From: Eledone cirrhosa
Lineage: Eukaryota
NCBI GenBank assembly: GCA_964016885.1
Contig: OZ024742.1
Location: forward strand, 291,152,001 to 291,216,000
Length of the DNA stretch: 64,000 bases
Reading direction: 5' to 3'
The notes beneath the pieces were generated by a model. It was not told where the DNA came from and did no database searches. It saw only the letters and a program-made list of their open reading frames with translations. The number at the start of each line of letters is the position of its first letter. Positions within the stretch are counted from its first letter, which is position 1. Shown one piece after another: positions 18,094-48,829 of this stretch. A program made the translations under genes and the position numbers.

Positions 18094-18336
18094 GCCATGA
18101 AAAAAATTTCCTGAAATTGTATCCTCCATTAATAGATACCCAGAACCTTCCATATGATTACAGTTCTATAATGCATTATGGGCCAAATGCTTTTGCCATA
18201 GACCGTGAGATTCCAACAATCATTCCCTTGAAGAAAGATGTAGTAATTGGACAAAGGAATGGCATGAGTCAGTTGGATGTTATTCAATTACAGAGACTCT
18301 ATAAATGTCCTGAGCGAGAATATATCCAAATACAAG
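18094..18336 (+). CDS. Astacin-MAM protease exon with the Met-turn
   Basis: LPYDYSSIMHYG (SxMHY), IGQRNGMSQLD..LYKC; CAG/GTAGTA sites; 243 nt, phase 1-1. Confidence 0.96.
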
Positions 18337-19182
18337 GTAGTAAAAATCATCTTCATTATGTAATTTAGTTTTTATCAGTCATAACCATTAATGTTTTATC
18401 TGTAATCTATGTATAAATTTCTGCAATTCTATCACTACATGTAAACAGAGAGGAGTAGTTTGACTACTTCATACTACAACTTTTTCTTTACATCTGCTGC
18501 TTGCATGAATTTATATGTGTGTAAAAGGAAGGAAAGGGATGGTGAAAAAACTATGGAGTGTGTGAGTGTTTGTGTAAATGTATATGTGTGTGTTTGTGTG
18601 AGTGTATGTCTGTGAGTGTGTATTTTTGTAAGTTTGTCTGTGTTTGTGCATTTATATTTATATACTCATATATATAAATGTATGCATATGCATATACACA
18701 CACTTACATATACACCTAGTAATGTTAAAATAGTTTAAATCTGTCCCAAACCCAGAGGCTCAACAGGTCAGAGGTTATTGTGGTTTCACTGACATGAAGA
18801 AGACTTATGTTCCTGGACAGGACATAAGTCCATTACAAGGTTAACTATCAACTGCTGCTAGTACTCATTTTTCCAGCTAGAAGTAACATGAAATAAAGTG
18901 TCTTGCTTAAGAACACAATGCACAACCTAGTACACAAGGCACTCATGATCTTGCAATTGTAAACCCAACACCCCAATGACTAGGCTTTGTGCCTGTTATT
19001 TCTGTAATAACCTACAATATTATTATTGTAATAGTTTACACCACCACCACCATCATTACCATCCTCATCCTCCTCCTCATCATCATCACCACCACCATCA
19101 TCATTATCATCACCACCATGAACACCACAACTATTTCTGTATAAATATATTATATAAAGATATATATATATGTATCTTTCAG

Positions 19183-19347
19183 CCAATGTAGTTTCCCCCA
19201 ATTGTACATTTGATGGAGGAATGTGTGGCTGGGAAAACGTGGAGATGGTTCCTTCAATAAAGAACAACACTTGGTTACGTCAAAATGCAGACACTCTCAG
19301 TTTACACACTGGACCAATGGTGGATCATACCATTGGTACCATCGATG
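19183..19347 (+). CDS. Astacin-MAM protease, MAM domain exon 1
   Basis: NCTFDGGMCGW...W.R...TGPMVDHTIGT = MAM N-terminal motif; 165 nt, phase 1-1. Confidence 0.93.
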
Positions 19348-19771
19348 GTAAGGTAAACCTTTTTATTTGTATCATTGTTGTAGACTTAATTTTGGATGGT
19401 AGATTCAACCCTTTAGCATTTACATTACTCTATATTTACTATTGTATTTTTGTGGTAAGGCTTTACCTCACATAATTATGTCACATAATATTGAATCTAT
19501 GAGATTTTGAGATTATTTATTTTGAAAACAATACCTTAACATTGGTATAAGGGGTTGGTTATGGCTAGTTTGAACAGAAAGAGGAGTGAGAATTTTGGTC
19601 AGATATGGTTGGTTTAAATGCTAAAGGGTTAATCTTGGGTCCTCCATGTATATCCAGTTTGATAACAATATGATCACAATCTAATGAGTAGAATCAGTAC
19701 AAGAATATAAAATGTTTAGTTCACAACTTGTCTTTCAACTTGAGAATATCCCCAACATTCTATAATTTCAG

Positions 19772-20019
19772 GTTACTACATCTTCACAGAAGCCTCTTCA
19801 AATTACCATTCTATAGCAAAAATCCGCTCCCCAAAAGTGACACCGGGAGTGCACTGTCTTCAATTTTGGTTCCACATGTATGGTAAAGATATGGGGTCTC
19901 TAAGGGTAAATATAGTTACTGGTGGACAGAAAACTATAAATCTTGCTACAATGAATGGAAACATGGGTAATAAGTGGGTACCCAAGAAGATTGAATTTAC
20001 TGCTACAGACGATACACAG
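19772..20019 (+). CDS. Astacin-MAM protease, MAM domain exon 2
   Basis: GYYIFTEAS..AKIRSP..HCLQFWFHMYGKDMGSLRV..GNMGNKW; CAG/GTAAGT sites; ends in phase 0. Confidence 0.93.
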
Positions 20020-20361
20020 GTAAGTGTTGTCACCATAACTGTTACCTACACCCATAGGTGTCATACTAGCCTTCACATACATAGATACATGCATATATAT
20101 ATTTATTATTTGTACAGAAAAATTACAATGAAACAGTGCTCAGGTGCACTACAATTCATCAAATAGATCCTGTAAAAGGGTGAAAGTAGGGATTCCTTAC
20201 TTAAAGTTAATCTGTACAAATAATAAATATTTGCTCTACGGGTTTTATATATATATATTTTTTTTATATATATAATCCTTATTAAGCCCTCTTCGGATTT
20301 TAGTCTTCATAATTATTATTATATATATATAGAGAGAGAGAGAGGGAGAGAGAGAAAGAGA

Positions 20362-23554: not shown

Positions 23555-23601
<47 letters not shown>

Positions 23602-23605
<4 letters not shown>

Positions 23606-24733
23606 AGAACCCAGATCCCCTCAGGGAAATGGCCTTGCTCAGTATGTAGGAAAGGTGTAGGTAGGAACTCTATTCTCTGCCCCAAATGCAAACAATGGGT
23701 ACACAAGAGATGTAGTGGGATCTCAGGAAGCTTAATTAAGAATGTAGGCTTCACATGCAGCAGCTGTACTGGAACAGCAAGCAGCAAACAGCCACAGGAA
23801 ACAAGTACCACCAATCTCTGGGAGGGCTCTGTAGAGACAGTAGACAGCTTCTGCTACCTAGGTGACCGAATTAGCAGCAGAGGTGGGTGTTCAGAAAGTA
23901 CAATAACTAGGGTAAGAACAGGATGGAAGAAGTTCAGGGAACTACTACCACTGCTAGCTGCAAAAGGCTTCTCCCTCAAAATGAAAGGCAGACTGTATGA
24001 TGCGTGTATCCGAACAGCGATGTTACATGGTAGTGAGACCTGGGCACTGAAGGTGGAAGACTTACGTAGATTAGAGAGAAATGAAGCCTGCATGCTCCGA
24101 TGGATGTGTAATAGTAATATACGCGAACGACAAAGTATAAATGAATTGAGAGAGAGACTGAGCATAAGAGGTATCAAATGCTGTGTGCAGGAGATGCGGA
24201 TGCGTTGGTATGGACATGTGATGCGTATGAAGGATGACAGCTGCATAAAAAGGTGCAGAGCACTAGAAGTCAATAGAAGCCGTGGAGTGGGGAGACCCAA
24301 GAAGACCTGGGATGAGGTGATAAAAGCCGACCTTACCCAATTACACCTCTCAAAGGCGATGACACACGACCGTGACCTCTGGCGTCATGCAGTAATACAG
24401 AGTACCCGACCTCCCATGGGTACAAGCTGAAGCGTATAGACAATATGCCCCCACACCCTCCCACTGCAAGGTGGTCATGGAGGTGCCACGGTAAAAAAGG
24501 ACCCAGCCCACACTGCAAAGTGGACGTGTAGGTGCCACGAAAAAGCACCCAGCACTCACTGTAAATGAGGTTGGTGTTAGGAAGGGCATCCAGCTCTAGA
24601 AATCAAGCCAAATCAGTTCCTGTATGAGCAAAGCATGGTCAGCCGACCGGACACTGCCCACAACAGGACAACCCGTCTAACCCATGCTAGCGTGGAAGAA
24701 CGGACGTAAAACGGTGATGATGATGATGATGAT
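23602..24733 (+). mobile_element. 5'-truncated RTE-clade LINE
   Basis: ORF 23558-24430 is nearly identical to 6275-7084; 3'UTR and (GAT)n tail present. Confidence 0.9.
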
Positions 24734-24779
24734 ATGCATGTATTTATATATTTATACATATATATATGTATGTATATAT

Positions 24780-27700
24780 CATCATCATCATCTTCGTTTA
24801 ACGTCCATCTTCCACGCTAGCATAGGTTAGATGGGAGTTGTCCCACGCGAGGCAAGGTTGGTCGGGTGACCGTGTCTCGCTCATATAGGACTATAGAGCA
24901 GGTTTTCTATGGCTGGATGTCCTTCCTAACACCAACCACATTTACAGTGTGGAATTGGGAACTTTTTACCATGTTACCTACCCAGCCACATTACAGTGTG
25001 ACTGTGTGTTTTTTTCTCGTGACACCTACACGATCTCGATCTCATTATCTCATTTATTTGGACTGGATGTTGTGGTACCAACTTTACAGAGAGAAGGTGG
25101 TGTTGGTGGGAGTGGGAGTATAGGGTAGGGGTAGTGGATTGGGGTGTATATTTGGTTAAGAGGTGCCTACTGACTGTAGGTTTCGCTTTGTACATAGGCA
25201 AGGCGGGTCTTCTGTATTACTGCGTAACGCCAAAGATCTCAGTCCAGTCACATTGTCTTGGAGAGGTGCAAGTATGTAAGGTCGGAATTTATCAGATCGT
25301 CCCAGGTTTTTCTGGGTCTACCTACTCCATAACTTCTATCAATTTTGATCGCCCTGCACTTTTTTTATACAGCTGTCATCTTTCATGCGCATCACATGGC
25401 CATACCAACATAGTCTTCTTTCAAGTAAACAGCATCTGATCCCTCTTATTCCTAATTTCTCACTTAGTTCATTTCTCAGCGGCTTATAGTAAGTTCTCTA
25501 ACAAATCAGTATAGCAAAGCTACCACCTCAGTTACTACTCCTTAAGTTTAGACCTGTTTGATGGGTTGATTGCGGAATTTGGAAAGTCTAAGCACTCAAT
25601 GACAATGTCACAGATAAAGATAAATTCACCTCCCGCTGCTGGACGAGAATACAAGGACCCCTCTTTATTTCAGACACGGATGACCAACATAATCCATCTC
25701 CTACACCCCTCCCTGTCCCTCCAACCCATCCATCCCACCCTCACAACTTCAGAGTTGGTACCATGAACGTAGGCACATTGAAAGGTCGTTCAAATGAGGT
25801 TGTAGAGATGCTTGAACGTAAAGAAGTTGATGTTTGTTGTATTCAAGAGACTAGGTGGAGAGGGGGGGGGGCGGGCTCTGCCAGATACATCGTGGGTAAA
25901 AAACGATGCTATAAACTTTTCTGGGTGGGAAATGACAACGGACAGGGTGGTGTAGGAATGATGTTAGCTGAAAAATGGGTAGATAAGGTAATTGACATAA
26001 ATAGAGGGAATGACAGAATAAATAAAATAGGACTAGATCTAAATAGAACTACTGTGACAATAATATCTGCTTATGCACCCCAATCTGGTCTACCTGATGT
26101 TATAAAGGACAGGTTCTATGAGATGCTAATGCACACTACCTCCCAAATAACCGACAGTGACTACATAATTATTGCTGGCGATCTAAACAGTCACGTTGGA
26201 CAACATAGTGATGGCTATGATGGAATCCATGGAGGCTATGGGGTTGGAAATAGAAATGAGGAGGGCTTCAGAATCCTGGAATTCTGTGAAGCAAATGGCC
26301 TAACTATCTGTAACACAAACTTCAAAAAATGGGAAAACCACTTGATCACCTATAGATCAGGGGAACACGCCAGCCAGATAGATTATATCCTTACTAGAAG
26401 ACGGGACAAAGTGTCTGTTGTAAACACTAAATCCCTCCCCCGTGAAGAGTGCACCTCCCAACATAGCCTAGTAGTTAGTGACCTCATAGTCAGGAATAGA
26501 TGTACTCGACGACAGAGGAGGCCTACCTTGAGGAGAAGAATATGGAAGTTGAAGGACCCCATAGCCAGTGACAAATTTAAAAGCTTATTACTTGATGCCT
26601 TTAATAATAAGGAAGAGCAATTAGAGACGTTTGATATAGAGGAACAGTGGCAATTCTTGAAAGAGAACCTGCTGAAAGCAACAGATGAAATCTGTGGCTG
26701 GAGCAGACTTATTGGCAGGAGGAGAGTAACTTGGTGGTGGAACAGTAAGGTGGAAGAGACAGTCAAGGCCAAAAAGCAGGCTTGGAAAGTATGGCAGGAT
26801 GGGGGAAGTAGAGAGCACTATCAAGTGGCCAAGAGAGAAGCTAGGAGACAAGTGTACCTTGCAAAAAGGGAAGCAGAGGATAGAAAGTTCAAGCATGTTC
26901 TACAATGTGAGGACCAAAAACATAAGGTGTTCAGGATTGCTAGACAATGTGTCAAGGAAAACCGTGATATTGTCGGGGAGAAGTGTGTCTGTAATGATAA
27001 CGGTGTGCTTGCCCTCACTGATACTGATAAGAAGATAGCCTGGAAGTGTCACTACGAGAGACTATTAAATGAGGAGAATAAATAGGAAAAAGATAGTCTG
27101 CCCCAAATCAATCCAATAGAAGGACCAACGGTGCATGTTAAAGGTAGTATAATAGGTAAGAAAATCAAAGATATGAAGACAGGCAAGGCAGCTGGGCCTT
27201 CCGAGATAGTTGCTGAGATGTTGAAGGCATCTGGTACGGTGGGACACACTATGGTCTCCTGGATAGTAAACCAAGTCATACAGAACGGGGTCATACCAAA
27301 TGACTGGCATAGCAGCATCATCATTAACTGCTACAATGGTAAAGGGGATGCTCTAGATAGGGGAAACTATAGAGGCATTAAGTTAGTTGACCAGGTCATG
27401 AAGATCACAGAAAGAGTTATAGCGAAACTAATCAGAGAACGAATTGATCTAGATGAAATGCAGTTTGGGTTTGTGTTAGGTAAAAGTACCACAGACGCTC
27501 TTTTCCTCGTACGACAACTACAGGAGAAGTACCTAGCTAAAAGTAAACCCCTCTACTTAGCTTTTGTAGACCTGGAGAAAGCCTTTGACAGGGTCCTCCA
27601 CTCCATTATCTGGTGGGCTCTTAGAAAACTAGGTGTAGATGAATGGCTTGTGAGAGCTTTACAAGCCATGTATAATGAAACAGTTAGTAAGGTTAGAATT

Positions 27701-28494
27701 AACAATAAATATTGTGAAGAATTTAGTGTAAAAGTTGGTGTTCATCAACGCTCTGTCCTTAGCCGCCTCCTATTTATTATTGCCCATCAGGCTATAACAG
27801 AGGAGTTCAAGACCGGCTGCCCATGGGAACTCCTATACGCATATGATCTAACGCTCATAGCTGAATCAATGGTGAACTAGAGAAGAAATTCCAAACATGG
27901 AAGCATGGCCTAGAATCAAAAGGCTTAAAGTTAACTTGTCTAAGACTAAAGTTCTAGTATATAGAAATGAAAATTGGAAATGGCCATGCTCAGTGTGTAG
28001 GAAAGGAGTAGGCAGAAATTCCATTTTATGTCACAAATGCAAAGTATGGGTACATAAAAGATGTAGTGGGATCTCAGGCAAGCTATCTAAGAACGTAGAC
28101 TTTATATGTGGCCGATGCTCAGGTGCAATAAGTAGCAAGTGTCCACAGGATACTAGCTCCTTCTATTGCCCAGATGGTTCTATAGAAATAGTGGACACTT
28201 TCCGTTACCTGGGTGACTAAATCAGCAGTTGTAAAGGGTGTTCTGAAAGTACAGTAGCCAGAGTCAGAACGGGATGGAAAAGGTTTAGAGAGCTTATACT
28301 GCTGTTGGCCACAAAAGGTTTCTCTCTAAAAATGAAAGGCAGATTGTATGATGCCTGTATACGAACAGCAATGCTATATGGCAGTGAGACATGGGCATTA
28401 CGTGCAGAGGATATACGCAGACTGGAGAGGAACAAAGCTTGCATGCTCCGTTGGATGTGTAATAGTAATATACGTGAACGGCAAAGCATAAATG
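24780..28494. mobile_element. Near full-length RTE-clade LINE with inverted 5' portion (APE+RT on + at ~25475-28494; 3' end on - at 24780-25474); pseudogenised
   Basis: APE motifs (NVGTL, CIQETRW, SAYAPQ, GDLNSHVG, QIDYIL, SQH) and RT motifs (QFGF, AFVDLEKAFDRV, LLYAYDL = decayed YADD), with in-frame stops and a frameshift. Confidence 0.92.
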
Positions 28495-29477
<983 letters not shown>

Positions 29478-30745
29478 GGACTTAAAATTAACCTGGCTAA
29501 GACCAAAGTACTAGTTTCTAGGAAAGAAAACAAGGCGGCGGTCCCTTCTGGGAAATGGTCGTGCTCGGTGTGTAGGAAAGGCGTAGGTAGAAACTCCATT
29601 TTATGTCCTAAATGCAAAGTATGGGTGCATAAAAGATGTAGTGGGATCACAGGTAAGCTAACTAAGAACATAGATTTTACATGTGGCCGGTGCTCTGGTG
29701 CAATAAGTAGCAGCAAGTGCCCACAAAATACTAGCTCTTTCAATTGCGCAGAGGGTTCTATAGAAATAGTGGACAGCTTCCGTTACCTGGGCGATAAAAT
29801 CAGCAGTGGGGGAGGGTGCTCTGAAAGTACTGTAGCTAGAGTCAGAACTGGTTGGAAAAAGTTCAGAGAGCTTATACCACTATTAGCTGCTAAAGGGTTC
29901 TCCCTAAAAATGAAAGGCAGGTTGTACGATGCCTGCATACGAACAGCAATGCTGCATGGCAGTGAGACCTGGGCATTGTGTGCAGAGGATATACGCAGAC
30001 TAGAGAGGAACGAAGCTTGCATGCTCCGCTGGATGTGTAACAGTAATATACGTGAACGGCAAAGCATAAACGAACTAAGGAAAAAATTAGAGATAAGAGG
30101 GAACAGATGTTGTTTATTTGAGAGAAGGCTACGTTGGTATGGACACGTGATGCGCATGAAAGTCGATAGCTGTATAACAAAGTGCAGGGCAATAAAGATA
30201 GACGGTAGTCACGGAATAGGCAGACCTAGAAAAACCTGGGACGAGCTGATAAACTCCGACATCACACACTTACACCTCTCCAAGACAATGTCACTGGACC
30301 GAGACCTTTGGCGGTACTCAGTAACAGAGAAGACCCGCCTTACCTAAATATATAGTAAAACCTACTCCAGCCAGTAGGCATCTCTAACAAAATACACCCC
30401 GTCCCACCACCACCACCCCCACCCGATCCACACCACCCCGTTCTATGTAAAGTTATGTTGGTGCCGCGCCATCGAGGCCGAAACAAATGAGATCGTGTAG
30501 GTGTCACGACAAAAAAACACACAGTCCACGCTGTAATGTGGCCGTGTAGGCAACACGGTAAAAACCTCCCAGACCCACACTGTAAATGTGGTTGGTGTTA
30601 GGAAGGGCATCCAACTGTAGAAAACCTGCCAGACAGTCCTATGCGAGCAAGACAATCACTCTTGCCTCAAGTGGGACTACCCCCGTCCAAACCCATGCAA
30701 GCGTGGAACACGGACGTTAAACGTTGATGATGATGATGATGATGA
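29478..30745 (+). mobile_element. 5'-truncated RTE-clade LINE
   Basis: ORF 29421-30347 GLKINLAKTKVL..FRYLG..RRLRWYGH; 3'UTR; (GAT)n tail. Confidence 0.9.
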
Positions 30746-31425: not shown

Positions 31426-31513
<88 letters not shown>

Positions 31514-31520
<7 letters not shown>

Positions 31521-34500
31521 TATAGACATAGAATATTCGAAAATATTCTGTATGTTTATAATAAACATTTTGAAGACCTAATCGCTATAGAATAGAATAC
31601 GTCACGTATTACAATTAGATTCTCGATAAAAGCAAGGGAAGTAATCTACGCGTTTCATTCTTGTTAGAAATCTTCAGGACTACATATCCAGTGCTTTTAT
31701 CGAGAATGACACAGCTAGAGACTTATAGAATACTTAGCTGTGTACAGGAACTGGTTTGAAAGAGCGGTTGCTGGTCCGGCAGAAATTAGAAATTGGAATA
31801 AATGCTCTGAAATAGCGATATATATGTGAATATAGACATAGAATATTCGAAAATATTCTGTATGTTTATAATAAACATTTTGAAGACCTAATCGCTATAG
31901 AATAGAATACGTCACGTATTACAATTAGATTCTCGATAAAAGCAAGGGAAGTAATCTACGCGTTTCATTCTTGTTAGAAATCTTCAGGACTACATATCCA
32001 GTGCTTTTATCGAGAATGACACAGCTAGAGACTTATAGAATACTTAGCTGTGTACAGGAACTGGTTTGAAAGAGCGGTTGCCGGTCCGGCAGAAATTAGA
32101 AATTGGAATAAATGCTCTGAAATAGCGATATATATGTGAATATAGACATAGAATATTCGAAAATATTCTGTATGTTTATAATAAACATTTTGAAGACCTA
32201 ATCGCTATAGAATAGAATACGTCACGTATTACAATTAGATTCTCGATAAAAGCAAGGGAAGTAATCTACGCGTTTCATTCTTGTTAGAAATCTTCAGGAC
32301 TACATATCCAGTGCTTTTATCGAGAATGACACAGCTAGAGACTTATAGAATACTTAGCTGTGTACAGGAACTGGTTTGAAAGAGCGGTTGCCGGTCCGGC
32401 AGAAATTAGAAATTGGAATAAATGCTCTGAAATAGCGATATATATGTGAATATAGACATAGAATATTCGAAAATATTCTGTATGTTTATAATAAACATTT
32501 TGAAGACCTAATCGCTATAGAATAGAAAACGTCACGTATTACAATTAGATTCTCGATAAAAGCAAGGGAAGTAATCTACGCGTTTCATTCTTGTTAGAAA
32601 TCTTCAGGACTACATATCCAGTGCTTTTATCGAGAATGACACAGCTAGAGACTTATAGAATACTTAGCTGTGTACAGGAACTGGTTTGAAAGAGCGGTTG
32701 CCGGTCCGGCAGAAATTAGAAATTGGAATAAATGCTCTGAAATAGCGATATATATGTGAATATAGACATAGAATATTCGAAAATATTCTGTATGTTTATA
32801 ATAAACATTTTGAAGACCTAATCGCTATAGAATAGAATACGTCACGTATTACAATTAGATTCTCGATAAAAGCAAGGGAAGTAATCTACGCGTTTCATTC
32901 TTGTTAGAAATCTTCAGGACTACATATCCAGTGCTTTTATCGAGAATGACACAGCTAGAGACTTATAGAATACTTAGCTGTGTACAGGAACTGGTTTGAA
33001 AGAGCGGTTGCCGGTCCGGCAGAAATTAGAAATTGGAATAAATGCTCTGAAATAGCGATATATATGTGAATATAGACATAGAATATTCGAAAATATTCTG
33101 TATGTTTATAATAAACATTTTGAAGACCTAATCGCTATAGAATAGAATACGTCACGTATTACAATTAGATTCTCGATAAAAGCAAGGGAAGTAATCTACG
33201 CGTTTCATTCTTGTTAGAAATCTTCAGGACTACATATCCAGTGCTTTTATCGAGAATGACACAGCTAGAGACTTATAGAATACTTAGCTGTGTACATACA
33301 GAATATTTTCGAATATTCTATGTCTATATTCACATATATATCGCTATTTCAGAGCATTTATTCCAATTTCTAATTTCTGCCGGACCGGCAACCGCTCTTT
33401 CAAACCAGTTCCTGTACACAGCTAAGTATTCTATAAGTCTCTAGCTGTGTCATTCTCGATAAAAGCACTGGATATGTAGTCCTGAAGATTTCTAACAAGA
33501 ATGAAACGCGTAGATTACTTCCCTTGCTTTTATCGAGAATCTAATTGTAATACGTGACGTATTCTATTCTATAGCGATTAGGTCTTCAAAATGTTTATTA
33601 TAAACATACAGAATATTTTCGAATATTCTATGTCTATATTCACATATATATCGCTATTTCAGAGCATTTATTCCAATTTCTAATTTCTGCCGGACCGGCA
33701 ACCGCTCTTTCAAACCAGTTCCTGTACACAGCTAAGTATTCTATAAGTCTCTAGCTGTGTCATTCTCGATAAAAGCACTGGATATGTAGTCCTGAAGATT
33801 TCTAACAAGAATGAAACGCGTAGATTACTTCCCTTGCTTTTATCGAGAATCTAATTGTAATACGTGACGTATTCTATTCTATAGCGATTAGGTCTTCAAA
33901 ATGTTTATTATAAACATACAGAATATTTTCGAATATTCTATGTCTATATTCACATATATATCGCTATTTCAGAGCATTTATTCCAATTTCTAATTTCTGC
34001 CGGACCGGCAACCGCTCTTTCAAACCAGTTCCTGTACACAGCTAAGTATTCTATAAGTCTCTAGCTGTGTCATTCTCGATAAAAGCACTGGATATGTAGT
34101 CCTGAAGATTTCTAACAAGAATGAAACGCGTAGATTACTTCCCTTGCTTTTATCGAGAATCTAATTGTAATACGTGACGTATTCTATTCTATAGCGATTA
34201 GGTCTTCAAAATGTTTATTATAAACATACAGAATATTTTCGAATATTCTATGTCTATATTCACATATATATCGCTATTTCAGAGCATTTATTCCAATTTC
34301 TAATTTCTGCCGGACCGGCAACCGCTCTTTCAAACCAGTTCCTGTACACAGCTAAGTATTCTATAAGTCTCTAGCTGTGTCATTCTCGATAAAAGCACTG
34401 GATATGTAGTCCTGAAGATTTCTAACAAGAATGAAACGCGTAGATTACTTCCCTTGCTTTTATCGAGAATCTAATTGTAATACGTGACGTATTCTATTCT

Positions 34501-37397
34501 ATAGCGATTAGGTCTTCAAAATGTTTATTATAAACATACAGAATATTTTCGAATATTCTATGTCTATATTCACATATATATCGCTATTTCAGAGCATTTA
34601 TTCCAATTTCTAATTTCTGCCGGACCGGCAACCGCTCTTTCAAACCAGTTCCTGTACACAGCTAAGTATTCTATAAGTCTCTAGCTGTGTCATTCTCGAT
34701 AAAAGCACTGGATATGTAGTCCTGAAGATTTCTAACAAGAATGAAACGCGTAGATTACTTCCCTTGCTTTTATCGAGAATCTAATTGTAATACGTGACGT
34801 ATTCTATTCTATAGCGATTAGGTCTTCAAAATGTTTATTATAAACATACAGAATATTTTCGAATATTCTATGTCTATATTCACATATATATCGCTATTTC
34901 AGAGCATTTATTCCAATTTCTAATTTCTGCCGGACCGGCAACCGCTCTTTCAAACCAGTTCCTGTACACAGCTAAGTATTCTATAAGTCTCTAGCTGTGT
35001 CATTCTCGATAAAAGCACTGGATATGTAGTCCTGAAGATTTCTAACAAGAATGAAACGCGTAGATTACTTCCCTTGCTTTTATCGAGAATCTAATTGTAA
35101 TACGTGACGTATTCTATTCTATAGCGATTAGGTCTTCAAAATGTTTATTATAAACATACAGAATATTTTCGAATATTCTATGTCTATATTCACATATATA
35201 TCGCTATTTCAGAGCATTTATTCCAATTTCTAATTTCTGCCGGACCGGCAACCGCTCTTTCAAACCAGTTCCTGTACACAGCTAAGTATTCTATAAGTCT
35301 CTAGCTGTGTCATTCTCGATAAAAGCACTGGATATGTAGTCCTGAAGATTTCTAACAAGAATGAAACGCGTAGATTACTTCCCTTGCTTTTATCGAGAAT
35401 CTAATTGTAATACGTGACGTATTCTATTCTATAGCGATTAGGTCTTCAAAATGTTTATTATAAACATACAGAATATTTTCGAATATTCTATGTCTATATT
35501 CACATATATATCGCTATTTCAGAGCATTTATTCCAATTTCTAATTTCTGCCGGACCGGCAACCGCTCTTTCAAACCAGTTCCTGTACACAGCTAAGTATT
35601 CTATAAGTCTCTAGCTGTGTCATTCTCGATAAAAGCACTGGATATGTAGTCCTGAAGATTTCTAACAAGAATGAAACGCGTAGATTACTTCCCTTGCTTT
35701 TATCGAGAATCTAATTGTAATACGTGACGTATTCTATTCTATAGCGATTAGGTCTTCAAAATGTTTATTATAAACATACAGAATATTTTCGAATATTCTA
35801 TGTCTATATTCACATATATATCGCTATTTCAGAGCATTTATTCCAATTTCTAATTTCTGCCGGACCGGCAACCGCTCTTTCAAACCAGTTCCTGTACACA
35901 GCTAAGTATTCTATAAGTCTCTAGCTGTGTCATTCTCGATAAAAGCACTGGATATGTAGTCCTGAAGATTTCTAACAAGAATGAAACGCGTAGATTACTT
36001 CCCTTGCTTTTATCGAGAATCTAATTGTAATACGTGACGTATTCTATTCTATAGCGATTAGGTCTTCAAAATGTTTATTATAAACATACAGAATATTTTC
36101 GAATATTCTATGTCTATATTCACATATATATCGCTATTTCAGAGCATTTATTCCAATTTCTAATTTCTGCCGGACCGGCAACCGCTCTTTCAAACCAGTT
36201 CCTGTACACAGCTAAGTATTCTATAAGTCTCTAGCTGTGTCATTCTCGATAAAAGCACTGGATATGTAGTCCTGAAGATTTCTAACAAGAATGAAACGCG
36301 TAGATTACTTCCCTTGCTTTTATCGAGAATCTAATTGTAATACGTGACGTATTCTATTCTATAGCGATTAGGTCTTCAAAATGTTTATTATAAACATACA
36401 GAATATTTTCGAATATTCTATGTCTATATTCACATATATATCGCTATTTCAGAGCATTTATTCCAATTTCTAATTTCTGCCGGACCGGCAACCGCTCTTT
36501 CAAACCAGTTCCTGTACACAGCTAAGTATTCTATAAGTCTCTAGCTGTGTCATTCTCGATAAAAGCACTGGATATGTAGTCCTGAAGATTTCTAACAAGA
36601 ATGAAACGCGTAGATTACTTCCCTTGCTTTTATCGAGAATCTAATTGTAATACGTGACGTATTCTATTCTATAGCGATTAGGTCTTCAAAATGTTTATTA
36701 TAAACATACAGAATATTTTCGAATATTCTATGTCTATATTCACATATATATCGCTATTTCAGAGCATTTATTCCAATTTCTAATTTCTGCCGGACCGGCA
36801 ACCGCTCTTTCAAACCAGTTCCTGTACACAGCTAAGTATTCTATAAGTCTCTAGCTGTGTCATTCTCGATAAAAGCACTGGATATGTAGTCCTGAAGATT
36901 TCTAACAAGAATGAAACGCGTAGATTACTTCCCTTGCTTTTATCGAGAATCTAATTGTAATACGTGACGTATTCTATTCTATAGCGATTAGGTCTTCAAA
37001 ATGTTTATTATAAACATACAGAATATTTTCGAATATTCTATGTCTATATTCACATATATATCGCTATTTCAGAGCATTTATTCCAATTTCTAATTTCTGC
37101 CGGACCGGCAACCGCTCTTTCAAACCAGTTCCTGTACACAGCTAAGTATTCTATAAGTCTCTAGCTGTGTCATTCTCGATAAAAGCACTGGATATGTAGT
37201 CCTGAAGATTTCTAACAAGAATGAAACGCGTAGATTACTTCCCTTGCTTTTATCGAGAATCTAATTGTAATACGTGACGTATTCTATTCTATAGCGATTA
37301 GGTCTTCAAAATGTTTATTATAAACATACAGAATATTTTCGAATATTCTATGTCTATATTCACATATATATCGCTATTTCAGAGCATTTATTCCAAT
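31514..37397. repeat. 310-bp tandem array (~19 units) with an internal inversion at ~33295; retrozyme-like
   Basis: Exact 310-nt period (e.g. GAATATTTTC at 33301, 33611 ... 37331); ~5.7 units in one orientation, then ~13.2 in the other; only a couple of variant bases seen. Confidence 0.97.
33452..33540 (+). ncRNA. Type I hammerhead ribozyme in the 310-bp unit (first sense copy; repeats every 310 nt to ~37260; 6 more on the - strand at ~31620-33258)
   Basis: GTAGTC-CTGAAGA-T-TTCT-AACA-AGAA-T-GAAA-CGCG-TA^GATTAC; stem I extended by a perfect 16-bp pair ATTCTCGATAAAAGCA/TGCTTTTATCGAGAAT; palindromic stem III ACGCGT. Confidence 0.8.
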
Positions 37398-37443
37398 ATA
37401 TATATATATTTGTATATGTAATTTTGATTTACATTTTCTGCAG

Positions 37444-37527
37444 GTGGAATTTGAAAGTATAACTGGGGATCTTTACCGAAGTGATATGGCAATTGATGAT
37501 GTTGTGGTGCAAGACAGAAATTGTTGA
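37444..37527 (+). CDS. Astacin-MAM protease terminal exon ([27 protein letters not shown])
   Basis: MAM C-terminal motif V.FE...G....D.AIDDV...C; TTTTCTGCAG acceptor; phase 0 matches the exon ending at 20019. Confidence 0.9.
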
Positions 37528-37557
37528 TGACATCCTCTTATTATTAATATTATATAT

Positions 37558-37691
<134 letters not shown>

Positions 37692-37774
37692 CTCTCTATA
37701 TATATATATATAAACATATATATATATATATACATATATATATATGTGTGTGTGTGTATATATATATATATGTA

Positions 37775-37817
<43 letters not shown>

Positions 37818-37936
37818 TCACATAGACACATATATATGCATATATATATATATATAAAGATACATGTATTGGTACATATGTATTATGTATGTATATTTAA
37901 GGAAGTTATATTCCTTACACTAATTCACTGTCTTAT

Positions 37937-37942
37937 AATAAA
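37937..37942 (+). promoter_or_regulatory. Candidate polyadenylation signal AATAAA
   Basis: In the 3'UTR and conserved in the duplicate at 45248-45253; low specificity in AT-rich DNA. Confidence 0.4.
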
Positions 37943-39252
37943 TATACTTCTCTGATATGTTTTTATCTTCTGTGGCGTTGAAATTGTAAAAATAATCCTG
38001 AAATCTTAATATATGATATTGAATTTATGTATGTTCCAAATTGTAGGCCATAGTTTCGTATCTAGGTAGTTGAAACTTTGCATAGTAGCCCTTCTTTTCA
38101 AGGAGAAAGTCATATGTAATGTGATCATACAAAATATTTTCTCTGTAACTTCAGAAAGAAAATCTAACAATATTGTATACCTCCAAGCAGGAGCAGATTA
38201 AGCTCTTATGTAATACTTAGCTGAAAATTTCATCAGGTCCCTTACATATTATTTATGGGAGCCCCCCCCCCCCCCCCCCCCAAAAAAAAAGAAAGAGTTT
38301 TGGAGCCCTTTAACCCTTCAGCATTTACATTACTGTATATTTACTATTGTATTTCTGTGGTAAAGGCTTTACCTCATGTAAGTTTCTCACATAATATTGA
38401 ATCTATGAGATTTTGATATTATTTATTTTGAGAACAATACCTTAACATCAGTATAAGCAGCCAGTTACAGCTGGTTTAAACAGAAAGAGGTGAGAGAATT
38501 CTGGCCAGATACAGCCAGTTTAAATGCTAAAAGGTTAAATATTGTGGGACCCTGTCTACAGTCCAGTCACCCACAACCCATCTATAATCCACCATTGCCT
38601 CCAAGGACTTTAATAGACAGTGGGTAAATTTACTGATTAAAAAAACAAGCCTGAATGCTTGAGCATTAATATGGGCAAGTTTCTTGTACCAGAACCTTGG
38701 AAGTAAAATTTGGTAGACAGAAATTGTACAAAAGCCTATGTTGAACTCCATGAGTATGGACACAACAGACAAATCCTGTTTGTGTGTGTGGGGAGGGTAA
38801 TAGTGAATGCAGTTACATCTTTAATCATTTTGTTATCAACTTGACAAAAATCAGCTTGGATTCTATGAAATAAAAAGAGTCCCTATTCAAATTAAAATCT
38901 TCCAACACAATTTCATATAAGAACCTTATGTTAAGTTGCTATCTTAATAATGAAATAATAAAAAATCTTAGTAAATCCTTCAAAAGTTTTCATTAACCTT
39001 TTTGATACTAATCTGACCAAAATTATCTCTGGTTCTATGAAACAAAATCACCCATTTTAAAGGGTTTCTATTTTAATTAAAACCTTCCAAAATAATCATA
39101 TATAAGAATTATATGTTATATTACTATCTTAGCAATGAAATAATTAATAACTTTAGTAAATCTCTCAAAATTAAGGGAACCATATCCTGGCTCTTTCGTT
39201 TCATATTCGGCATGGATTTTATGGCTGAATGCCTTTCATATCACCAACCATA

Positions 39253-40550
39253 TTACAGAGTGTACTGGGTGAATTGTATCATACCACATTATAGAGTGTA
39301 TTGGGTGAATTGTATCATGACACCAGCACTACCACTTTACAGAGTGTATTGGGTGAATTGTATCATGACACCAGCACTACCACTTTACAGGGTGTATTGG
39401 GTGAATTGTATCATGACACCAGCACTACCACTTTACAGGGTGTATTGGGTGAATTGTATCATGACACCAGCACTACCACTTTACAGGGTGTATTGGGTGA
39501 ATTGTATCATGACACCAGCACTACCACTTTACAGGGTGTATTGGGTGAATTGTATTATGATGCCAGCACTACCACTTTACAGGGTGTATTGGGTGAATTG
39601 TATCATGACACCAGCACTACCACTTTACAGGGTGTATTGGGTGAATTGTATCATGACACCAGCACTACCACTTTACAGGGTGTATTGGGTGAATTGTATC
39701 ATGACACCAGCACTACCACTTTACAGGGTGTATTGGGTGAATTGTATCATGACACCAGCACTACCACTTTACAGGGTGTATTGGGTGAATTGTATTATGA
39801 TGCCAGCACTACCATGTTACAGAGTGTATTGGATGCATATTATTTTAACACTAGTACTGTTACTTAACGGGGTGTACTGGGTCAAAATTAGCATAGCACT
39901 AGCACTACAACTTTATAGAGTATAAAGATACATTTTATTGAGAAACAGCACTGTCACTTTACATTGTGTAATGGGTGTATTATGCCATCAGCACTACAGA
40001 AAATACTGGCAGCATTTTTATCATAGCACTAGCTCTACCATTTTACAGAGCGTAATTGGTGCATCTTATTGTGATACTAGCATTGCCACTTTACAGTGAT
40101 GAAGTTTATTGTGACACTTCCATTACCACTATCATAGCACCAGCTCTACCATTTTACAGAGTGTAATTGATGCATCTTATTGTGATACTAGTATTGCCAC
40201 TTTACAGTGATGAAGTTTATTGTGACACTTCCATTACTACTTTGCAGAATATACTGGGTGGATTTTATCATGGCACCAGCAATGCCAATTTACAGAGTGT
40301 ATTAGGTACATTTTATTGAGAGCAGCATGTGATGGATGTGTTTTATCACATTACAGAGTGTACTGAATGCATTTGTATTGTAGCACCAACACTAGCATTT
40401 TATAGAGTGTAATAGGTACATTTTTATGATGGTGCCAGTATTACCCCATTACAGAGCTTACTGGGTGCTTTTTTGTCACAACACCTGTACTGTCACTTTA
40501 CAGAGTGTGCTGGGTGCATTTTATTGTGATACCAGCACTACCACTTTACA
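39253..40550. repeat. 48-bp minisatellite (~11-12 near-perfect copies at ~39290-39830, degenerating to ~40550)
   Basis: Unit GTATTGGGTGAATTGTATCATGACACCAGCACTACCACTTTACAGGGT. Confidence 0.92.
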
Positions 40551-42954
40551 AACTAAACATATTCATGACGTTCCCCACAGCACTCAAAGAAGTTGACCTA
40601 TAGCTCAACATTTCAACTTACCTGATCACTCTATTGACCATTACTGAGTGTTTGGAGTTTCTGATCTCCATGGTTCTTCCTATTTTAAATATAGAAGTGA
40701 CTATTTTTAACTTTTGGTAATGCCTCACCAATAATGAACGATTCTCTATTTCATAAAGAAAATACCTGCTAAATATCATCATGGACGCAACAGACAATAC
40801 ACAGGTAAATGTTGTTGCTATATCTGTCATATAGAGAGGTAGGTGTTAGTGCCATACTTGTCAAATATTACCTTTAATTCAATAGAAAATTCACAAGTAG
40901 ATGGTGTCACAAAATCTATCACAGACACAGCTAAATGTTATCACCATACTTGTCACATTCGAAGGTTAAGTGTTGTCACCATACTTTTAAAAAACACAGG
41001 TATATGTTGTCACTGTACCTTTTAAAAACACATGTAAATATTGTCATCATACCTGAAGAAGGGGTCACCAAATGTAGTGGTGGTTAAGAGGATAGCTTGT
41101 TGTTGACCAAATGTGTAGTTGTATTTATGGTTTGGTTAGTCACTTGTTCATTGTAGTGTGAAAGAATTTGTAGTAGTAATTGTTGGCTTGATTAACTATT
41201 TTGTGAGTTACTCTCTTCCATATAAAACACTGTGTGAACGCTTGTGACTTATGGCAAATGAATTGCGTGTTGAATGTTGAAGGATGAAAGGGAAATTATC
41301 GATATTCAGTGAACAACAACAAAAGTCTCTACTTTGATAATTTTTATTAAGAAATATCTTACATAGAAGTTATTATGATAACATAGAAAAAACAACAAAT
41401 AGTCCAAATGAAATTGTGTATTATGTTTGTGTGAATGGTTTGACATGGATGCTGTAGTAGTCAGCAAAGATTGCATGGAACTAACCTTTGTTGGAATCAA
41501 ATGGGTGTATGACTGCCTTGTCTCATGGTCAAAAGTTTTGAGACCCAATATGTTGGAGTGAGTCTGTTGGCAAGTACAGTATTCTGATATTTGTCATGAA
41601 TTGAATTGAACTGGTTGTTGGACAGCCAAGAGCAGACTATTTATGAAAATTCTATTGTCATTGACAATAAGCAGATGACTTTCAGAAAACTGTATTCTTC
41701 CAGACAGTTTGGCAACATTAACCCCCAGAGAGTACAGTACAAAGAAAATCACTTGTCTATGAGGCCAAAGGTTGTATGATTTATTTCCGCAACCAGAGGA
41801 ACAATAGTTTAAATCTCACTGCATAGATTTGCTACATATCCATGTTGGTGTTGTCACCATACCTGTCAAATACACAGGTAAATGATGTCACCATACTTTT
41901 CAAATATTGTTTTTACTGCAATAGACAAATTAAAAGTAAGTGTATTCACTATACCTGTAAATACTGTGTTCACTGCAATCAAGAATACACAGGTGAAAGT
42001 TGCTAGCTTTTATTGACAAAGGTTAACATTGTCAAAGTATCTGTTAAACACACAGGTATGTTGTCACTATAAGTGTCAAATATATGCCTAACTATACAAT
42101 GTATAGTGGGTGGGTATATTGGTGTGAAAAGATTATCAAATAATGTGAAAGCTACAGTGTAAAGAGCTAATGGAAGGAGCTACAGATAGGGAAGGATGTT
42201 AAGCTGGATCTTGGGTATGGTGTGAGGTTGGAAGGTGTAAAAACGTTTTGTTACTTTGAATGGAGAAGATGGATCAAACTCCACAAGAGTATCTTGAGTA
42301 AGATGTGCATAGAAGTCCCAGGAACTGAGTGGTGTGCTAATGAGAAGAGGAATGTTGCTGAAACTGAAGGGAAAGGTGTATGTTGTATGTGTGGGAGGTG
42401 CCATGATTTATGGGAGTGAGATGTGTGTGATGAATGTAGAGCAATGGAAATAGATCCAATAGTGAATGTTGTGAAATGAAATGAAATGGAATGAGGTGGG
42501 TGGGTTCTGTGTTGAGAAGGATGAAAGTGACTGAGTGAGAAGAGTGATGGAAATGAATGTGGAAAGAACTTGAGGAAGAGGAAAACTAAGAAAGAGAAGG
42601 AAATGTAAGCCAGAGATTGGTGAGCAGAAATGAATGGAATAGCGTGTCATAAGGCCTGTAAGGAAAAGGGCTTCAAAATTGTTGTAGCTGTTACTATGAT
42701 AGCGATATGAAGTTAAAAATATCTTAGTATTTATATATATTTATCTATTTGGTGTTTTTTAAAAAATTGAATTCTGAAAAGAATATTAATCGAAAAGAAA
42801 AAACACTATGTAATTTATAAAAATAAACACTATTATCAAACGGAAAGCGTTTATATTTGAAGTCTCTACCTAAATCTACCTGATGAATGAATTGATAAAC
42901 TTAACCAGAGCAAGGGAGACAATCTGAAAGTAAAATGATTTCCTCCATTTATTT

Positions 42955-45004: not shown

Positions 45005-45088
45005 GTGGAATTTGAAAGTATAACTGGGGAACATTACCGAAGTGATATGGCAATTGATGATGTTGTGGTGCAAGACAGAAATTGTTGA
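45005..45088 (+). CDS. Duplicate terminal exon of the astacin-MAM gene ([27 protein letters not shown]); alternative last exon or duplication remnant
   Basis: Differs from 37444-37527 at two adjacent codons; intact TTTTTGCAG acceptor; 3'UTR homology continues to ~45430. Confidence 0.65.
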   Translation: MEFESITGEHYRSDMAIDDVVVQDRNC

Positions 45089-45118
45089 TGACATCCTCTT
45101 ATTATTAATATTATATAT

Positions 45119-45170
<52 letters not shown>

Positions 45171-46046
45171 ATACATGTATTGGTACATATGTATTATGTA
45201 TGTATATTTAAGGAAGTTATATTCTTTACACTAATTCACTGTCTTATAATAAATATACTTCTCTGATATGTTTTTATCTTCTGTGGCGTTGAAATTATAA
45301 AAATAATCCTGAAATCTTAATATATAATATTGAATGTATGTTCCAAATTGTAGACCATAGTTTCTTACCTAGGTAGTTGAAACTTTGCATAGTGGCCCTT
45401 CTTTTCAAGGAGAAAGGCATGTTATGTGACCATTCCTAAGATATTATATCTGTAGCTCCATATTCTATGTACTATACATGCATATTTGATCAGTTGTAGT
45501 GCACCTGAACACTGTACACAATATTTTTTTCTTTATATAATACACAGTCATCATACTTGCCCAATATTGTATTGTCATTTACTGTAAAAGTCGAAAAACA
45601 TAATACTGAGGTTGATGTGATTGACTAAATCCCTTTAAACTAAGCAACTAATCCTGGTTTTTAAAAAAGCCAATGGAGACAACCTAGAAAAATTACCGCT
45701 CCCCCACTTATTCCAACCCCACCTAGGAGTACATGACAAAGTCTTTGAATTAATTTAAACAAAATTTCTATGTGCTTGAGCCTGTTTTGTATTTACTTTA
45801 TTGACTGGTTATTGAACTGTTGGACTATTTTTTTTGCAATATGATTCAGACATAAAGTATCTATGTTTTCTGTTTGGAAAAGACAAAACCATGCATTTTT
45901 AGAAGAATGGTATTAATACAGATAATAGTTGTTGTTGAAATAACAAGAATGGCTTTTTGGTTTATATACAAGAGTTTACTTCATTGAAGTCAAAGAAAGG
46001 ACAATAAACATATTACCACTAGTTGTGAAGGTTGACGATGTTATTA

Positions 46047-48679
46047 GTGTAGTTGGTTCTTGAGGCTGTTGGTAGTAAAAAGAGTTGCTCTTAACATGTT
46101 CACTGGAGTAGGATGGTATTTGCACTCCACGTGTTGTGGGTGAAGGCTGAAGTGGAGAAGGCGAAGTCGTCTCCGTTCTCCAGGGCTGCTGCGGGTAAAA
46201 GAGAGAGAACACTCTCGCTGTCTCAATATATAGTCCCCATGGGGACGTAACTCCAATTACCTCCTGTTGTTGACACTAGGGGTCACTACAGTCCCCAAGG
46301 GACGTAACTCTCATGAGTTCTGGATTTCACCGCTAGGGGTCACTACAATACCCTCCTCCAGACGATAGGCGAAAAGCCCGAAGGTAACTGTAGTGAACCC
46401 GCAAGAACGGGATCCAAGCAAAGGTATGAAACAATAACAAAAAAATAAAAAGGTACATGCATACATAATACAAAGAAAAAGAAGAAAAAAAAAGAAAAGG
46501 GTCCATAGTGGCCAGTTCATATAAAAAATGTCTGACAGAGTTTTTGGGCCAGTGGACTCTTCGACTGGAATGGGTCGTGGTCTTGTATGTAGGTGAAGGT
46601 GGAGCAGAAGGAGCAGGTGTATGCACAATCGAGAAAGATTGGGTATTTGTGGCTCAGGTGTATGAGCGTCAGTGTATGCCCTTTTTATTCTATCCATCGA
46701 AATTGTCTCTCTGGATCCCTTAATGTCTACTGTGAAATGTTTGTCAGTACGTAATAACACATGGTAGGGTCCAAAGTATGGTTGTGTGAGAGGTGGACTA
46801 ACCGCGTCGTTTCTGACAAAGACATGTGTCCACGAGGCAATATCCCTTGGGACTGCAGTTTTAATAGTTTGTTTCCTAGTATCCATAGGCGGTAAGTCCT
46901 GAAAAATGAGATACGTAGGAAAGAGGATCTTGAAAAGCAAGATCAACAGAGGCAAGCATTTGCCCAGGCAACACTAGAGGAGCACCATACAATAATTTGG
47001 CCGGGGAGAACCCAAGGTCCTCCTTTATGGATGACCGAATTCCTAATAACACAATAGGAAGGTACTCGCTCCAACGTAGAGAGTCTGGATAGGCGTGAAG
47101 AGCGGCCTTTAATTGGCGGTGAAAATGTTCCACCATTCCGTTTGAAGCAGGATGATAAGATGTAGTCCGAATACGTTGAGCGCCAATAATTTTTGTCAGC
47201 TCTGAGAAAAGATGAAAAAGATGAGATTCAAATTGCCTACCACGGTCTGTGGTAATTGTGGTTGGCACTCCATAGCGGGCAATCCACCCTGATACCAGGG
47301 CACGCGCTATCGTCTCGGTGGTAATGTCCTTTAAGGGGATGGCTTCAGGCCATCGCGAAAAACGATCAATGCAGGTCAAAAGGTAAGAATATCCACTACT
47401 GAATGGCCAAGGTCCAACGATATCGATGTGGATGTGTTGAAAATGAGCATCCGGAGTACTGAAAGTACCAAGTGGAGTCCGGATGTGTCTGTGGACTTTA
47501 GATTTTTGACACTGTATGCAGGAACGGCACCAGGCAATAATTTCTCGCCTCATATTTGGCCAGAAAAATCTAGCCGTTATGAGCTTTACCGTGGCTGAAG
47601 ATCCTGGGTGAGAAATGCTGTGCAAAGCAAGGAAAACAATTCGATGGTGAATCTCGGGAACATAAGAACTTGGTGAATCTGTAGATACATCGCAGAGAAT
47701 CTGTCTGTTGGTAGTTGACAAGGGCAGATATTTCAGGTTGCAAGTCGCAAATTCAGCTGATTGAGTACCCAACGATTCGAGTGCAGGTTGGTCTGCTGCC
47801 AAACGCCTTAAATCGATCTCCTGGGATGACGAAATCAAGCTGATTGGCAAGCGTGACAAGGCGTCTGCAGCTGTATTTAGTGAGCCAGCAATGTGCTGTA
47901 TATCACTTGTAAACTGTGAAATGTAATCAAGGTGCCTTGTCTCTCTGGGCGAATATTTGTTGGCTTTAGCCCTCAAAGCGAAGGTGAGAGGTTTGTGGTC
48001 AGTGAAAACCGTAAAAGTTCTTCCCTCAAGAATATGAGAAAAAATGTTTCAATGACAGATATATGGCTAATAACTCCCGACCAAACGTGCTGTAACGAGT
48101 TTCTTCTGGTTTCAGCTTCCTGGAGAAAAATGCCAAAGGTTGTTGGTTTTCAGCATTATACTGTTGTAAAACTGCTCCCACAGTGGTATCAGATGCATAG
48201 ACACAAAGCGAAAGCTTGGCCTCTGGTACTGAGCGGGCTAGCAAAGATGAATTAGCAAGTGCTGTCTTGGCAGTCTGGAAATCTTCGAGTTGTCCTTGTG
48301 TCAAGGAAATATCCTCATTCTTCTTATGACGATTTTTCAAAATCTTGGTAAGGGAAATTTTGCACATTGAGGAAGTTGGTGTAGTTGGTTCTTGAGGCTG
48401 TTGGTAGTAAAAAGAGTTGCTCTTAACATGTTCACTGGAGTAGGATGGTATTTGCACTCCACGTGTTGTGGGTGAAGGCTGAAGTGGAGAAGGCGAAGTC
48501 GCCTCCGTTCTCCAGGGCTGCTGCGGGTAAAAGAGAGAGAACACTCTCGCTGTCTCAATATATAGTCCCCATGGGGACGTAACTCCAATTACCTCCTGTT
48601 GTTGACACTAGGGGTCACTACAGTTCCCAAGGTACGTAACTCTCATGAGTTCTGGATTTCACCGCTAGGGGTCACTACA
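46047..48679 (-). mobile_element. Gypsy/Ty3 LTR retrotransposon, internally deleted (RNase H + integrase retained)
   Basis: Direct repeats 46047-46347 and ~48379-48679 starting TGTAGTG on -; polypurine tract GGAGGAGGG next to the 3' LTR; RNase H PLAFFSRKL..YSTFGRELLA; integrase [25 protein letters not shown]; the 3' LTR probably extends left of 46047. Confidence 0.9.
46876..47976 (-). pseudogene. Gypsy pol fragment (integrase)
   Basis: H..SHPG..WP.M..C..CQ zinc finger and DDE core; flanked by frameshifts. Confidence 0.88.
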
Positions 48680-48829
48680 CATTTATGAGAATATCAATTT
48701 CATTCTTGGACCAATTTTGTTTGTCGTAGATCTGTTGTGTTGTCACTGTGATACTCCTTTTCTTTTGTGTACACTTTTATGTGAGTGTGTGTGTGTTTGT
48801 AATATAAACTTTGGGGGTTTATATTACAT

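Follow-up and report, generated by a model that had tools for sequence, protein, structure and literature searches.

The window analysed here, 64,000 nucleotides (nt) of Eledone cirrhosa DNA (assembly GCA_964016885.1, contig OZ024742.1, positions 291,152,001 to 291,216,000 of the forward strand), carries a hammerhead ribozyme array in the last intron of an astacin-MAM protease gene. We found that the 13 sense units of this array and the six antisense ribozyme cores beside them are one two-armed insertion into a (TA)n tract. Judged by every sequence feature that was tested, the array is a non-long terminal repeat (non-LTR) retrozyme, with predicted ribozyme activity and predicted RNA circles. 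As a whole, the locus is best explained as a recent insertion of the type made by Penelope-like elements (PLEs), copied from a likely circular RNA and having little effect on the gene; we hold this explanation with reasonable confidence. The family-wide footprint of Penelope-type, two-ended and likely rolling-circle integration is a more solid result than the host-gene story. In the accessible parts of the literature, no description of such a footprint was found for retrozymes, nor was any earlier description of two-armed retrozyme arrays or of octopus retrozymes, and the supplements to Li 2026, Cervera 2020 and Frangieh 2024 could be relevant here.

The insertion is made of 310-nt units placed end to end, and its parts are as follows.

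31428 to 31517: (CT)n(TA)n tract, the left side of the target.
31508 to 33296, minus strand: antisense arm, 5.8 units with six hammerhead cores and two internal substitutions.
33294 to 33296: arm junction, a 3-nt overlap at which unit position 120 stands against position 1.
33294 to 37397, plus strand: sense arm, 13 full 310-nt units and a further 74 nt, with the outer end at unit position 74 (the long or 'tail' end).
37196 to 37238, plus strand: last hammerhead, with the predicted cut after 37232; the same motif occurs every 310 nt from 33476.
37398 to 37443, plus strand: a short (TA)n that forms the right-hand part of the target, with a pyrimidine tract and the AG acceptor, undamaged by the insertion.

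The 13 sense units showed zero differences (Tandem Repeats Finder, 13.2 copies, 100%), and the antisense arm ended at unit position 39-48 (the short end), where it merged into the TA tract. The unit was a non-coding tandem with 34% GC (106/310), a core was present in 13 of the 13 full sense units, and the insertion contained no reverse transcriptase-endonuclease open reading frame (ORF) of its own. These results agree with the initial annotation in that 13 plus-strand ribozyme units (cores CTGAAGA...GAAA at 33482 + 310n) lie in the intron in the sense of the astacin pre-mRNA and that the last predicted cleavage falls at 37232 (after GUA; last core at 37202), 211 nt before the exon at 37444. 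The distance from the end of the array to the acceptor, given there as ~45 nt, was counted as 46 nt. The array had been described as 13 sense units only, however, and the adjoining antisense arm (31508-33296, six cores) had been omitted. Additionally, it had been placed between the exon ending at 20019 and a terminal exon at 37444; the two exons do form an in-frame junction, but 37444 is not the sole last exon, as a copy lies at 45005.

The array was similar to the metazoan non-LTR retrozymes described in PMC7229834, PMC7761336 and the Li 2026 preprint (10.64898/2026.07.22.740005), which have a non-coding tandem unit of 150-450 nt with low GC content and one type I hammerhead per unit, and which form many dispersed arrays, often intronic, that co-occur with PLEs. 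In contrast to the retrozymes in the accessible text of these sources, most insertions here consist of two multimeric arms that diverge and that end in (TA)n at fixed sites 35 nt apart. RNA circles have been shown for metazoan retrozymes, whereas the E. cirrhosa family is known here from sequence alone.

Each unit carries the motif GUAGUC-CUGAAGA-U-UUCU/AGAA-U-GAAA-CGCG-UA-GAUUAC, in which the elements of a type I hammerhead core (CUGANGA, GAAA, UH, and helices I and II) were all found. Helix I was 6 base pairs (bp) long and extended by 3 + 16 bp (96-nt fold, z -6.2). Helix II was 4 bp long and, in the hammerhead position numbering, was closed by a U.U at 10.1-11.1, the usual but not universal G10.1-C11.1 pair being absent. 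We also observed the U.U closure in an ORF-bearing Penelope family of the same genome, and a variant of the unit family had A-U at this position (37209 T>A). A stable helix III was replaced by the palindrome ACGCGU, which would permit a double-hammerhead form and fits the description in the accessible part of PMC4209133. For two neighbouring units, the double hammerhead was the minimum-energy fold predicted (-109.9 kcal/mol, versus -101.2 and -90.8 kcal/mol for the monomeric folds), with a pairing probability of 0.89-0.99. Among the variants that reached at least 5% in the DNA runs within 37188-37251, 9 of 10 places corresponded to N7, loops or pair-keeping changes (37199, 37209, 37234), and none fell on another core base. 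Rfam gave no hammerhead family match, either at the gathering threshold or at E<=10 on 36800-37400, and we regard the motif as a putative ribozyme on the basis of the core motif, the fold and this pattern of variation.

The exact 43-nt core had 806 matches genome-wide (433 forward, 373 reverse) as against 0 for a reversed control pattern, and the matches are therefore not due to chance; a sister core variant had 5,361 matches. The first 100 exact-core matches listed corresponded to 20 loci, from which an extrapolation suggests ~160 loci for this subfamily. We examined 60 insertions in two sets. The first contained 39 scored insertions of 169 candidates (the window locus and 38 others), which were the best matches with a full minus-strand unit. 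The second contained 21 insertions in 20 further regions of one contig, C1: the 12 remaining loci among the 20 listed for the exact core and 9 of 13 clusters among the sister matches listed, with four single-core clusters omitted. Taken together, the cores and the 60 insertions showed the dispersal expected of a mobile retrozyme. Two diverging arms were present in 51 of the 60 insertions (32/39 in the first set and 19/21 in the second), whereas a stricter script, which halted at indels and short arms, scored 28/39 of the first set as two-armed. Among 20 loci listed consecutively on contig C1, 17 were two-armed, and no converging pair of arms was seen among the 60 insertions.

The outer ends of the arms lay at fixed sites. 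One short end (~39-48) and one long end (~74) were found in 48 of the 50 two-armed insertions with both ends in view (30/32 in the first set and 18/18 in the second, where the ends were read by eye as 35-48 and 68-81); these fixed ends lie 35 nt apart in the unit, and 67 of 71 arms ended in (TA)n. Inner ends (n = 56) were compatible with a uniform distribution (Kolmogorov-Smirnov p 0.24), and 0/56 lay within 5 nt of the cut site. The arm junctions (n = 28) overlapped by 1-8 nt in 19 cases, were blunt in three and had 1-12 extra bases in six, and arm length showed no difference between long-end and short-end arms (p 0.5).

These observations bear on whether the inverted array in the window might be an assembly or fold-back read artefact, or have an inflated copy number, which we consider extremely unlikely. 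Such an origin would account for 13 units without one difference, and when four runs were aligned to 37088-37546, none of them, DNA runs included, covered 37392-37546, although this gap is uninformative. However, the junction joins position 120 to position 1 and is thus not symmetric, the outer ends coincide with sites that are fixed across the family, and dozens of loci have the same build with different junctions. Loose ends at the short-end site (place 37371) also occurred in DNA contigs, as well as in the raw reads of a different sample. The exact number of units could still be off.

Variation among the units was informative about the template. No variant was common to different loci (0/51), and at four loci (L147, L148, L149 and L152) a private variant was present in every copy of both arms. 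Position 113 of L147 failed the check as a locus-wide variant, and two at position 185 were not scorable. In the first set, T>C exceeded A>G among the variants of the unit by 9 to 0 (p 0.005; one of six pairs tested), but the second set gave 3 to 5, or 3 to 2 when the diverged L161 was left out, and this excess was dropped as evidence. A diverged form of the unit was abundant in run X5 (organism B, a second species), and the family is thus older than this burst.

Alternatively, a homogeneous master array could have yielded long multimeric linear transcripts that stayed uncut and were copied into the arms, or short two-armed insertions could have grown by later tandem duplication. Variants at 2-, 3- and 6-unit periods and scattered repeats in L144, L157 and L158 are consistent with this origin; a Penelope protein used unprocessed RNA in vitro (PMC11167929), and local amplification was proposed by Li 2026 (10.64898/2026.07.22.740005). 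We nevertheless consider it unlikely. Most variants are confined to a single unit and none is common to loci, and the filling of both arms by private variants at four loci is what a single unit-length template would give. Moreover, a linear template that had been cleaved would end at the cut site, but inner ends showed no excess there, and an arm of as many as 19 units could be copied only if all of its hammerheads had remained uncut.

A circular template is, in our view, probable. The arms cross the cut site repeatedly and without a scar, inner ends show no preference for this site, and private variants occupy every copy of both arms at four loci, all of which fits a unit-length circle that was copied round. 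In the mechanism that we propose, tandem transcripts would self-cleave as double hammerheads, and the monomers would be ligated to circles. A Penelope-like enzyme would then cut a (TA)n tract and reverse-transcribe from both broken ends, by two-ended ('twin') priming. The Penelope RT-GIY-YIG protein would start the cDNA at two internal start sites, reverse transcription (RT) would make several rounds of the circle on either side, and the resulting two cDNAs would then be joined. In the parts of PMC4209133 and PMC7761336 available, the circle route is proposed but not shown.

We compared the insertions with the known marks of PLEs. An inverted 5'-truncated copy, a 30-40-bp tail at one end only and (TA)n or other AT-rich targets are described for PLEs (Craig 2021, PMC8557442). 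In vitro, two internal RT start sites make the tail of Penelope, both strands are cut and extended, the hammerhead cut is not required, and unprocessed RNA was used (Frangieh 2024, PMC11167929). The retrozyme family had the inverted truncated copy and the 30-40-bp tail (51/60; 48/50) as well as an AT-rich or microsatellite target (67/71). In these respects it is like PLEs with a C-terminal GIY-YIG domain (PMC8557442, PMC11167929, PMC4209133), in which RT likewise has two internal start sites that follow a hammerhead whose helix III is short and palindromic. Unlike PLEs, the insertion has no ORF, and its arms are many-unit repeats of a 310-nt RNA.

The genome contained 10,597 GIY-YIG candidates, of which 90 loci were fetched and 150 scored. 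Copies with RT and GIY-YIG domains carried a hammerhead of the same build (CUGAAGA-U...U-GAAA). Their (TA)n started +135 to +151 or +197 to +212 from the core (7/8 matches); these distances bracket those of the retrozyme unit (+160/+195). We found L099 and L098 to be diverging pairs, and L099 had one end of each kind. A Penelope-like family with RT and GIY-YIG domains was observed at L092, L096, L097, L099, L101, L178 and L198, with near-identical terminal repeats and a U.U-closed hammerhead. Given the PLE marks and these ORF-bearing copies of the same geometry, the enzyme is very likely a Penelope protein, and we consider a Penelope-type two-ended insertion highly probable. Separately, L064 was tried as a partner, with a 78% match over 97 nt, and was rejected as a separate small two-armed insertion of another family; L101 and L102 gave weak matches only. 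This other hammerhead-like repeat family (L064:2449-2864) is two-armed and matches the unit only where the two end sites lie, and the matching region is a candidate protein-binding segment.

Several points weigh against this account of the origin. Among the 90 Penelope loci fetched, no terminal repeat matched the insertion in sequence, and none of them was an autonomous partner whose terminal repeat resembles the unit. No circle, cut end or RT intermediate was observed in the contigs, which cannot show them. We consider the insertion likely to be very recent, but the 39 differences in 202 full units of the first set underestimate the age of the family, as the best matches were sampled, and its youth is overstated. 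Finally, variants recurred at periods of several units at L035, L036, L038, L144, L157 and L158; arm length was thus also shaped by later duplication, a multimeric template or assembly, sources that the 13 identical units in the window cannot separate.

The host of the insertion is an astacin-MAM protease gene, whose parts in the window are as follows.

11422 to 20019, plus strand: seven coding exons (11422-11465, 13894-13969, 15916-16051, 16792-16967, 18094-18336, 19183-19347 and 19772-20019), assigned by Pfam domains, reading frame and tblastn; further exons may lie 5' of 11422.
37444 to 37527, plus strand: coding part of the proximal last exon, GDLY form.
45005 to 45088, plus strand: second, distal copy of the last exon, GEHY form, preceded by an AG acceptor of its own.

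The exons matched Pfam Astacin (E 1e-20 and 6e-18) and MAM (6e-12), whereas the short last exon alone gave a weak MAM match (E 0.035); an HExxHxxGxxH motif and a Met-turn followed by MAM identify an astacin-MAM (meprin-like) protease. The region 11422-20019 and the exon at 37444 share one reading frame, and octopus relatives continue through the 20019/37444 junction (TENTQ-VEFES). The nearest records were proteins of Octopus bimaculoides and O. sinensis (68-72% identity over the queried exon), automatically named meprin-like or 'astacin-like metalloprotease toxin 2'. No further exon of the protease was found by tblastn between 20019 and 37444.

The two last exons were identical except at coding bases 27 and 29, and a genome search revealed two copies of the last exon but one copy of the exon ending at 20019. 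The GEHY form occurred in four O. bimaculoides records and the GDLY form in an O. sinensis record; each form is thus present in other octopus species, and both likely predate the array. Upstream of the distal acceptor we found (TA)n without an array, likely the form that the target had before it received the insertion, and the 3' region there was similar to the proximal one and contained AATAAA. The duplication comprised the last exon and its 3' region (37444-38153 and 45005-45460). Both copies shared the species-specific QDRNC (QDGTC in relatives) despite their GDLY/GEHY difference; they may be an old duplication with gene conversion or an old polymorphism. Between them lay two short degenerate copies (40787-40827 and 41870-41895) of the exon end and donor at 20002-20042. 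A second MAM-domain gene converges on the protease gene from the minus strand (exons 53026-52856, 51988-51728 and 49319-49236; 32-46% identity), and its read-through would be sense to the six minus-strand cores.

The initial annotation had pointed to the sense orientation of the array and had proposed that host transcription could drive monomer production and that co-transcriptional self-cleavage could sever the pre-mRNA before the final splice, which could lower expression, truncate the MAM domain or change last-exon choice. However, both strands carry an arm in most insertions (51/60), and an intronic insertion will almost automatically contain sense copies, whichever the direction of the gene; the sense orientation is therefore uninformative. 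Cutting itself is plausible, given that two neighbouring units are predicted to fold as a double hammerhead. However, the antisense arm is transcribed first in the pre-mRNA, and a 1.78-kb duplex starting at 33296:33413 was predicted, which would mask six of the 13 sense cores and leave seven free.

33413 to 35192, plus strand: stretch of the sense arm that would form the pre-mRNA duplex with the antisense arm (fold prediction).

None of the sequencing runs listed as matching was recorded as RNA. Transcripts were represented by run X4, whose kind is not on record and which is RNA-like only by inference, as one contig joins three exons. This contig (1,461 nt) joined exons 18094-18336, 19183-19347 and 19772-20019 without mismatch and ran 26 letters past the 20019 donor, which are known by their number and by the first two, matching GT. 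Both last exons start with GT and share exactly their first 26 letters, and the contig stopped where they first differ. Splicing thus occurs in the X4 sample, in which the 20019 donor is joined to a last exon; this speaks against the claim that cleavage prevents the final splice, although the X4 animal may or may not carry the array. The simplest cause of the stop is a graph fork, with both last exons in use or the distal exon differing at base 27 through editing or an allele. Had the contig merged with unspliced RNA, it would stop at 27, assuming 31-letter words. As for a changed choice of last exon, a real substrate exists in the duplicated exon, but both forms occur in other octopus species and the choice predates the array.

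X4 contigs also covered the unit, although contigs cannot show circles, ends, strand or locus. No sign of special expression of this subfamily was seen in X4, where the sister core variant made up 214/225 depth units at 37206, contig depth being a poor measure. Compared with the unit, X4 differed by A>G at eight places and T>C at two (37145-37333), most of which were absent from the DNA runs and several of which lay in helix II and its loop. These differences are possibly due to A-to-I editing of family transcripts as double-stranded RNA (dsRNA); they are not assignable to a locus, and alleles can mimic them.

A competing explanation accepts the same origin but holds that the seven free hammerheads cut the nascent RNA as dimers with a frequency high enough to lower full-length mRNA and shift splicing to the proximal GDLY exon, since the distal last exon lies 7.5 kb further. 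The predicted minimum fold of two units agrees with this, as do the duplicate last exon and the spliced contig ending at the first differing base. By our own arithmetic, at a mammalian elongation rate of 3.5-4.1 kb/min, the polymerase would pass from the first free cut site to the proximal acceptor in ~0.5 min and to the distal one in ~2.5 min, and a slow intronic ribozyme of Cpeb3 does affect its mRNA (PMC10919898). On the other hand, the U.U at 10.1-11.1 stands in place of the usual G-C, intronic hammerhead cuts were tolerated in two studies cited in PMC2995048, and only one of nine Xenopus retrozyme dimers was cleaved in vitro while 8/9 were silent (10.64898/2026.07.22.740005). The occurrence of GDLY and GEHY in other octopus species also places the exon choice before the array. 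We therefore regard an effect of this kind as possible but doubtful.

The explanation that we prefer, in which the array is a passenger in its host gene and has a small effect on it, appears fairly likely. Six sense cores would be masked by the antisense arm, and the remaining seven would have roughly half a minute until transcription reaches the proximal acceptor; most transcripts that are cut would be rescued by exon tethering. Engineered intronic hammerheads have reportedly been studied by Dye 2006 and Fong 2009 (cited in PMC2995048 and PMC10919898). The array is similar to these and to the HDV-like (hepatitis delta virus-like) ribozyme of Cpeb3 (PMC10919898) in that a sense-strand intronic self-cleaving motif races splicing. 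Those cases are single motifs, either conserved or engineered, with measured rates, whereas here a young transposon array has an antisense arm and predicted activity. According to the work cited in PMC2995048, splicing withstood intronic hammerhead cuts and was blocked only by a fast HDV ribozyme. In X. tropicalis, 44% of retrozyme copies are intronic (Li 2026, 10.64898/2026.07.22.740005), and nothing sets the present locus apart except its size. Some observations argue against a small effect. Only one of the 39 insertions is longer than this one, and the fold prediction strongly favours the double hammerhead. Hammerheads of invertebrate retrozymes can cleave fast (0.8 per min in coral), and Xenopus genes show a depletion of retrozymes (10.64898/2026.07.22.740005). 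In addition, X4 comes from another sample than the best-matching DNA runs and may lack the array.

How animal retrozymes integrate and which retroelement mobilises them are stated as open in the accessible literature. The 2020 review (PMC7761336), in its available part, describes retrozyme repeats without a motif pointing to a mobilising element, and the Li 2026 preprint (10.64898/2026.07.22.740005) argues from co-occurrence and pLTR (pseudo-LTR) similarity. The ends, junctions and per-insertion variants of this young family are still legible. They give exact predictions, namely RT starts at unit positions ~39 and ~74, a (TA)n target and multimeric cDNA from a 310-nt circle, and an in vitro system of the kind needed has been built for a lizard Penelope (PMC11167929). 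Each two-armed intronic insertion would deliver sense ribozymes together with long dsRNA, which alters how such arrays are to be read in gene scans. The locus also offers an internal ratio, GDLY versus GEHY junction reads per allele, for any disturbance of splicing by a natural hammerhead array. A joint reading, in which hundreds of near-identical insertions of an ongoing retrozyme burst are direct footprints of two-ended rolling-circle RT of a circular RNA by a Penelope enzyme, and would fix both the mobilising machinery and its start sites, while the half-masked array acts as a kinetic switch between the duplicated last exons, is distinctly unlikely.

Other repeats were observed in the window. 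Broken fragments of long interspersed nuclear elements (LINEs; RTE-like by eye) lay at 23600-30730, in the same intron upstream of the array, and LINE and LTR-type remnants were found at 46100-48700 and 53500-64000. An 18S rRNA 5' fragment at 7200-7610 (Rfam SSU_rRNA_eukarya, E 4e-26), likely a retrocopy, was located beside a TA tract and followed by the tRNA-like head of a short interspersed nuclear element. We also found two other minisatellites, at 39282-39832 (48-nt unit x 11.5) and 17019-17415 (60-nt unit x 6.5).

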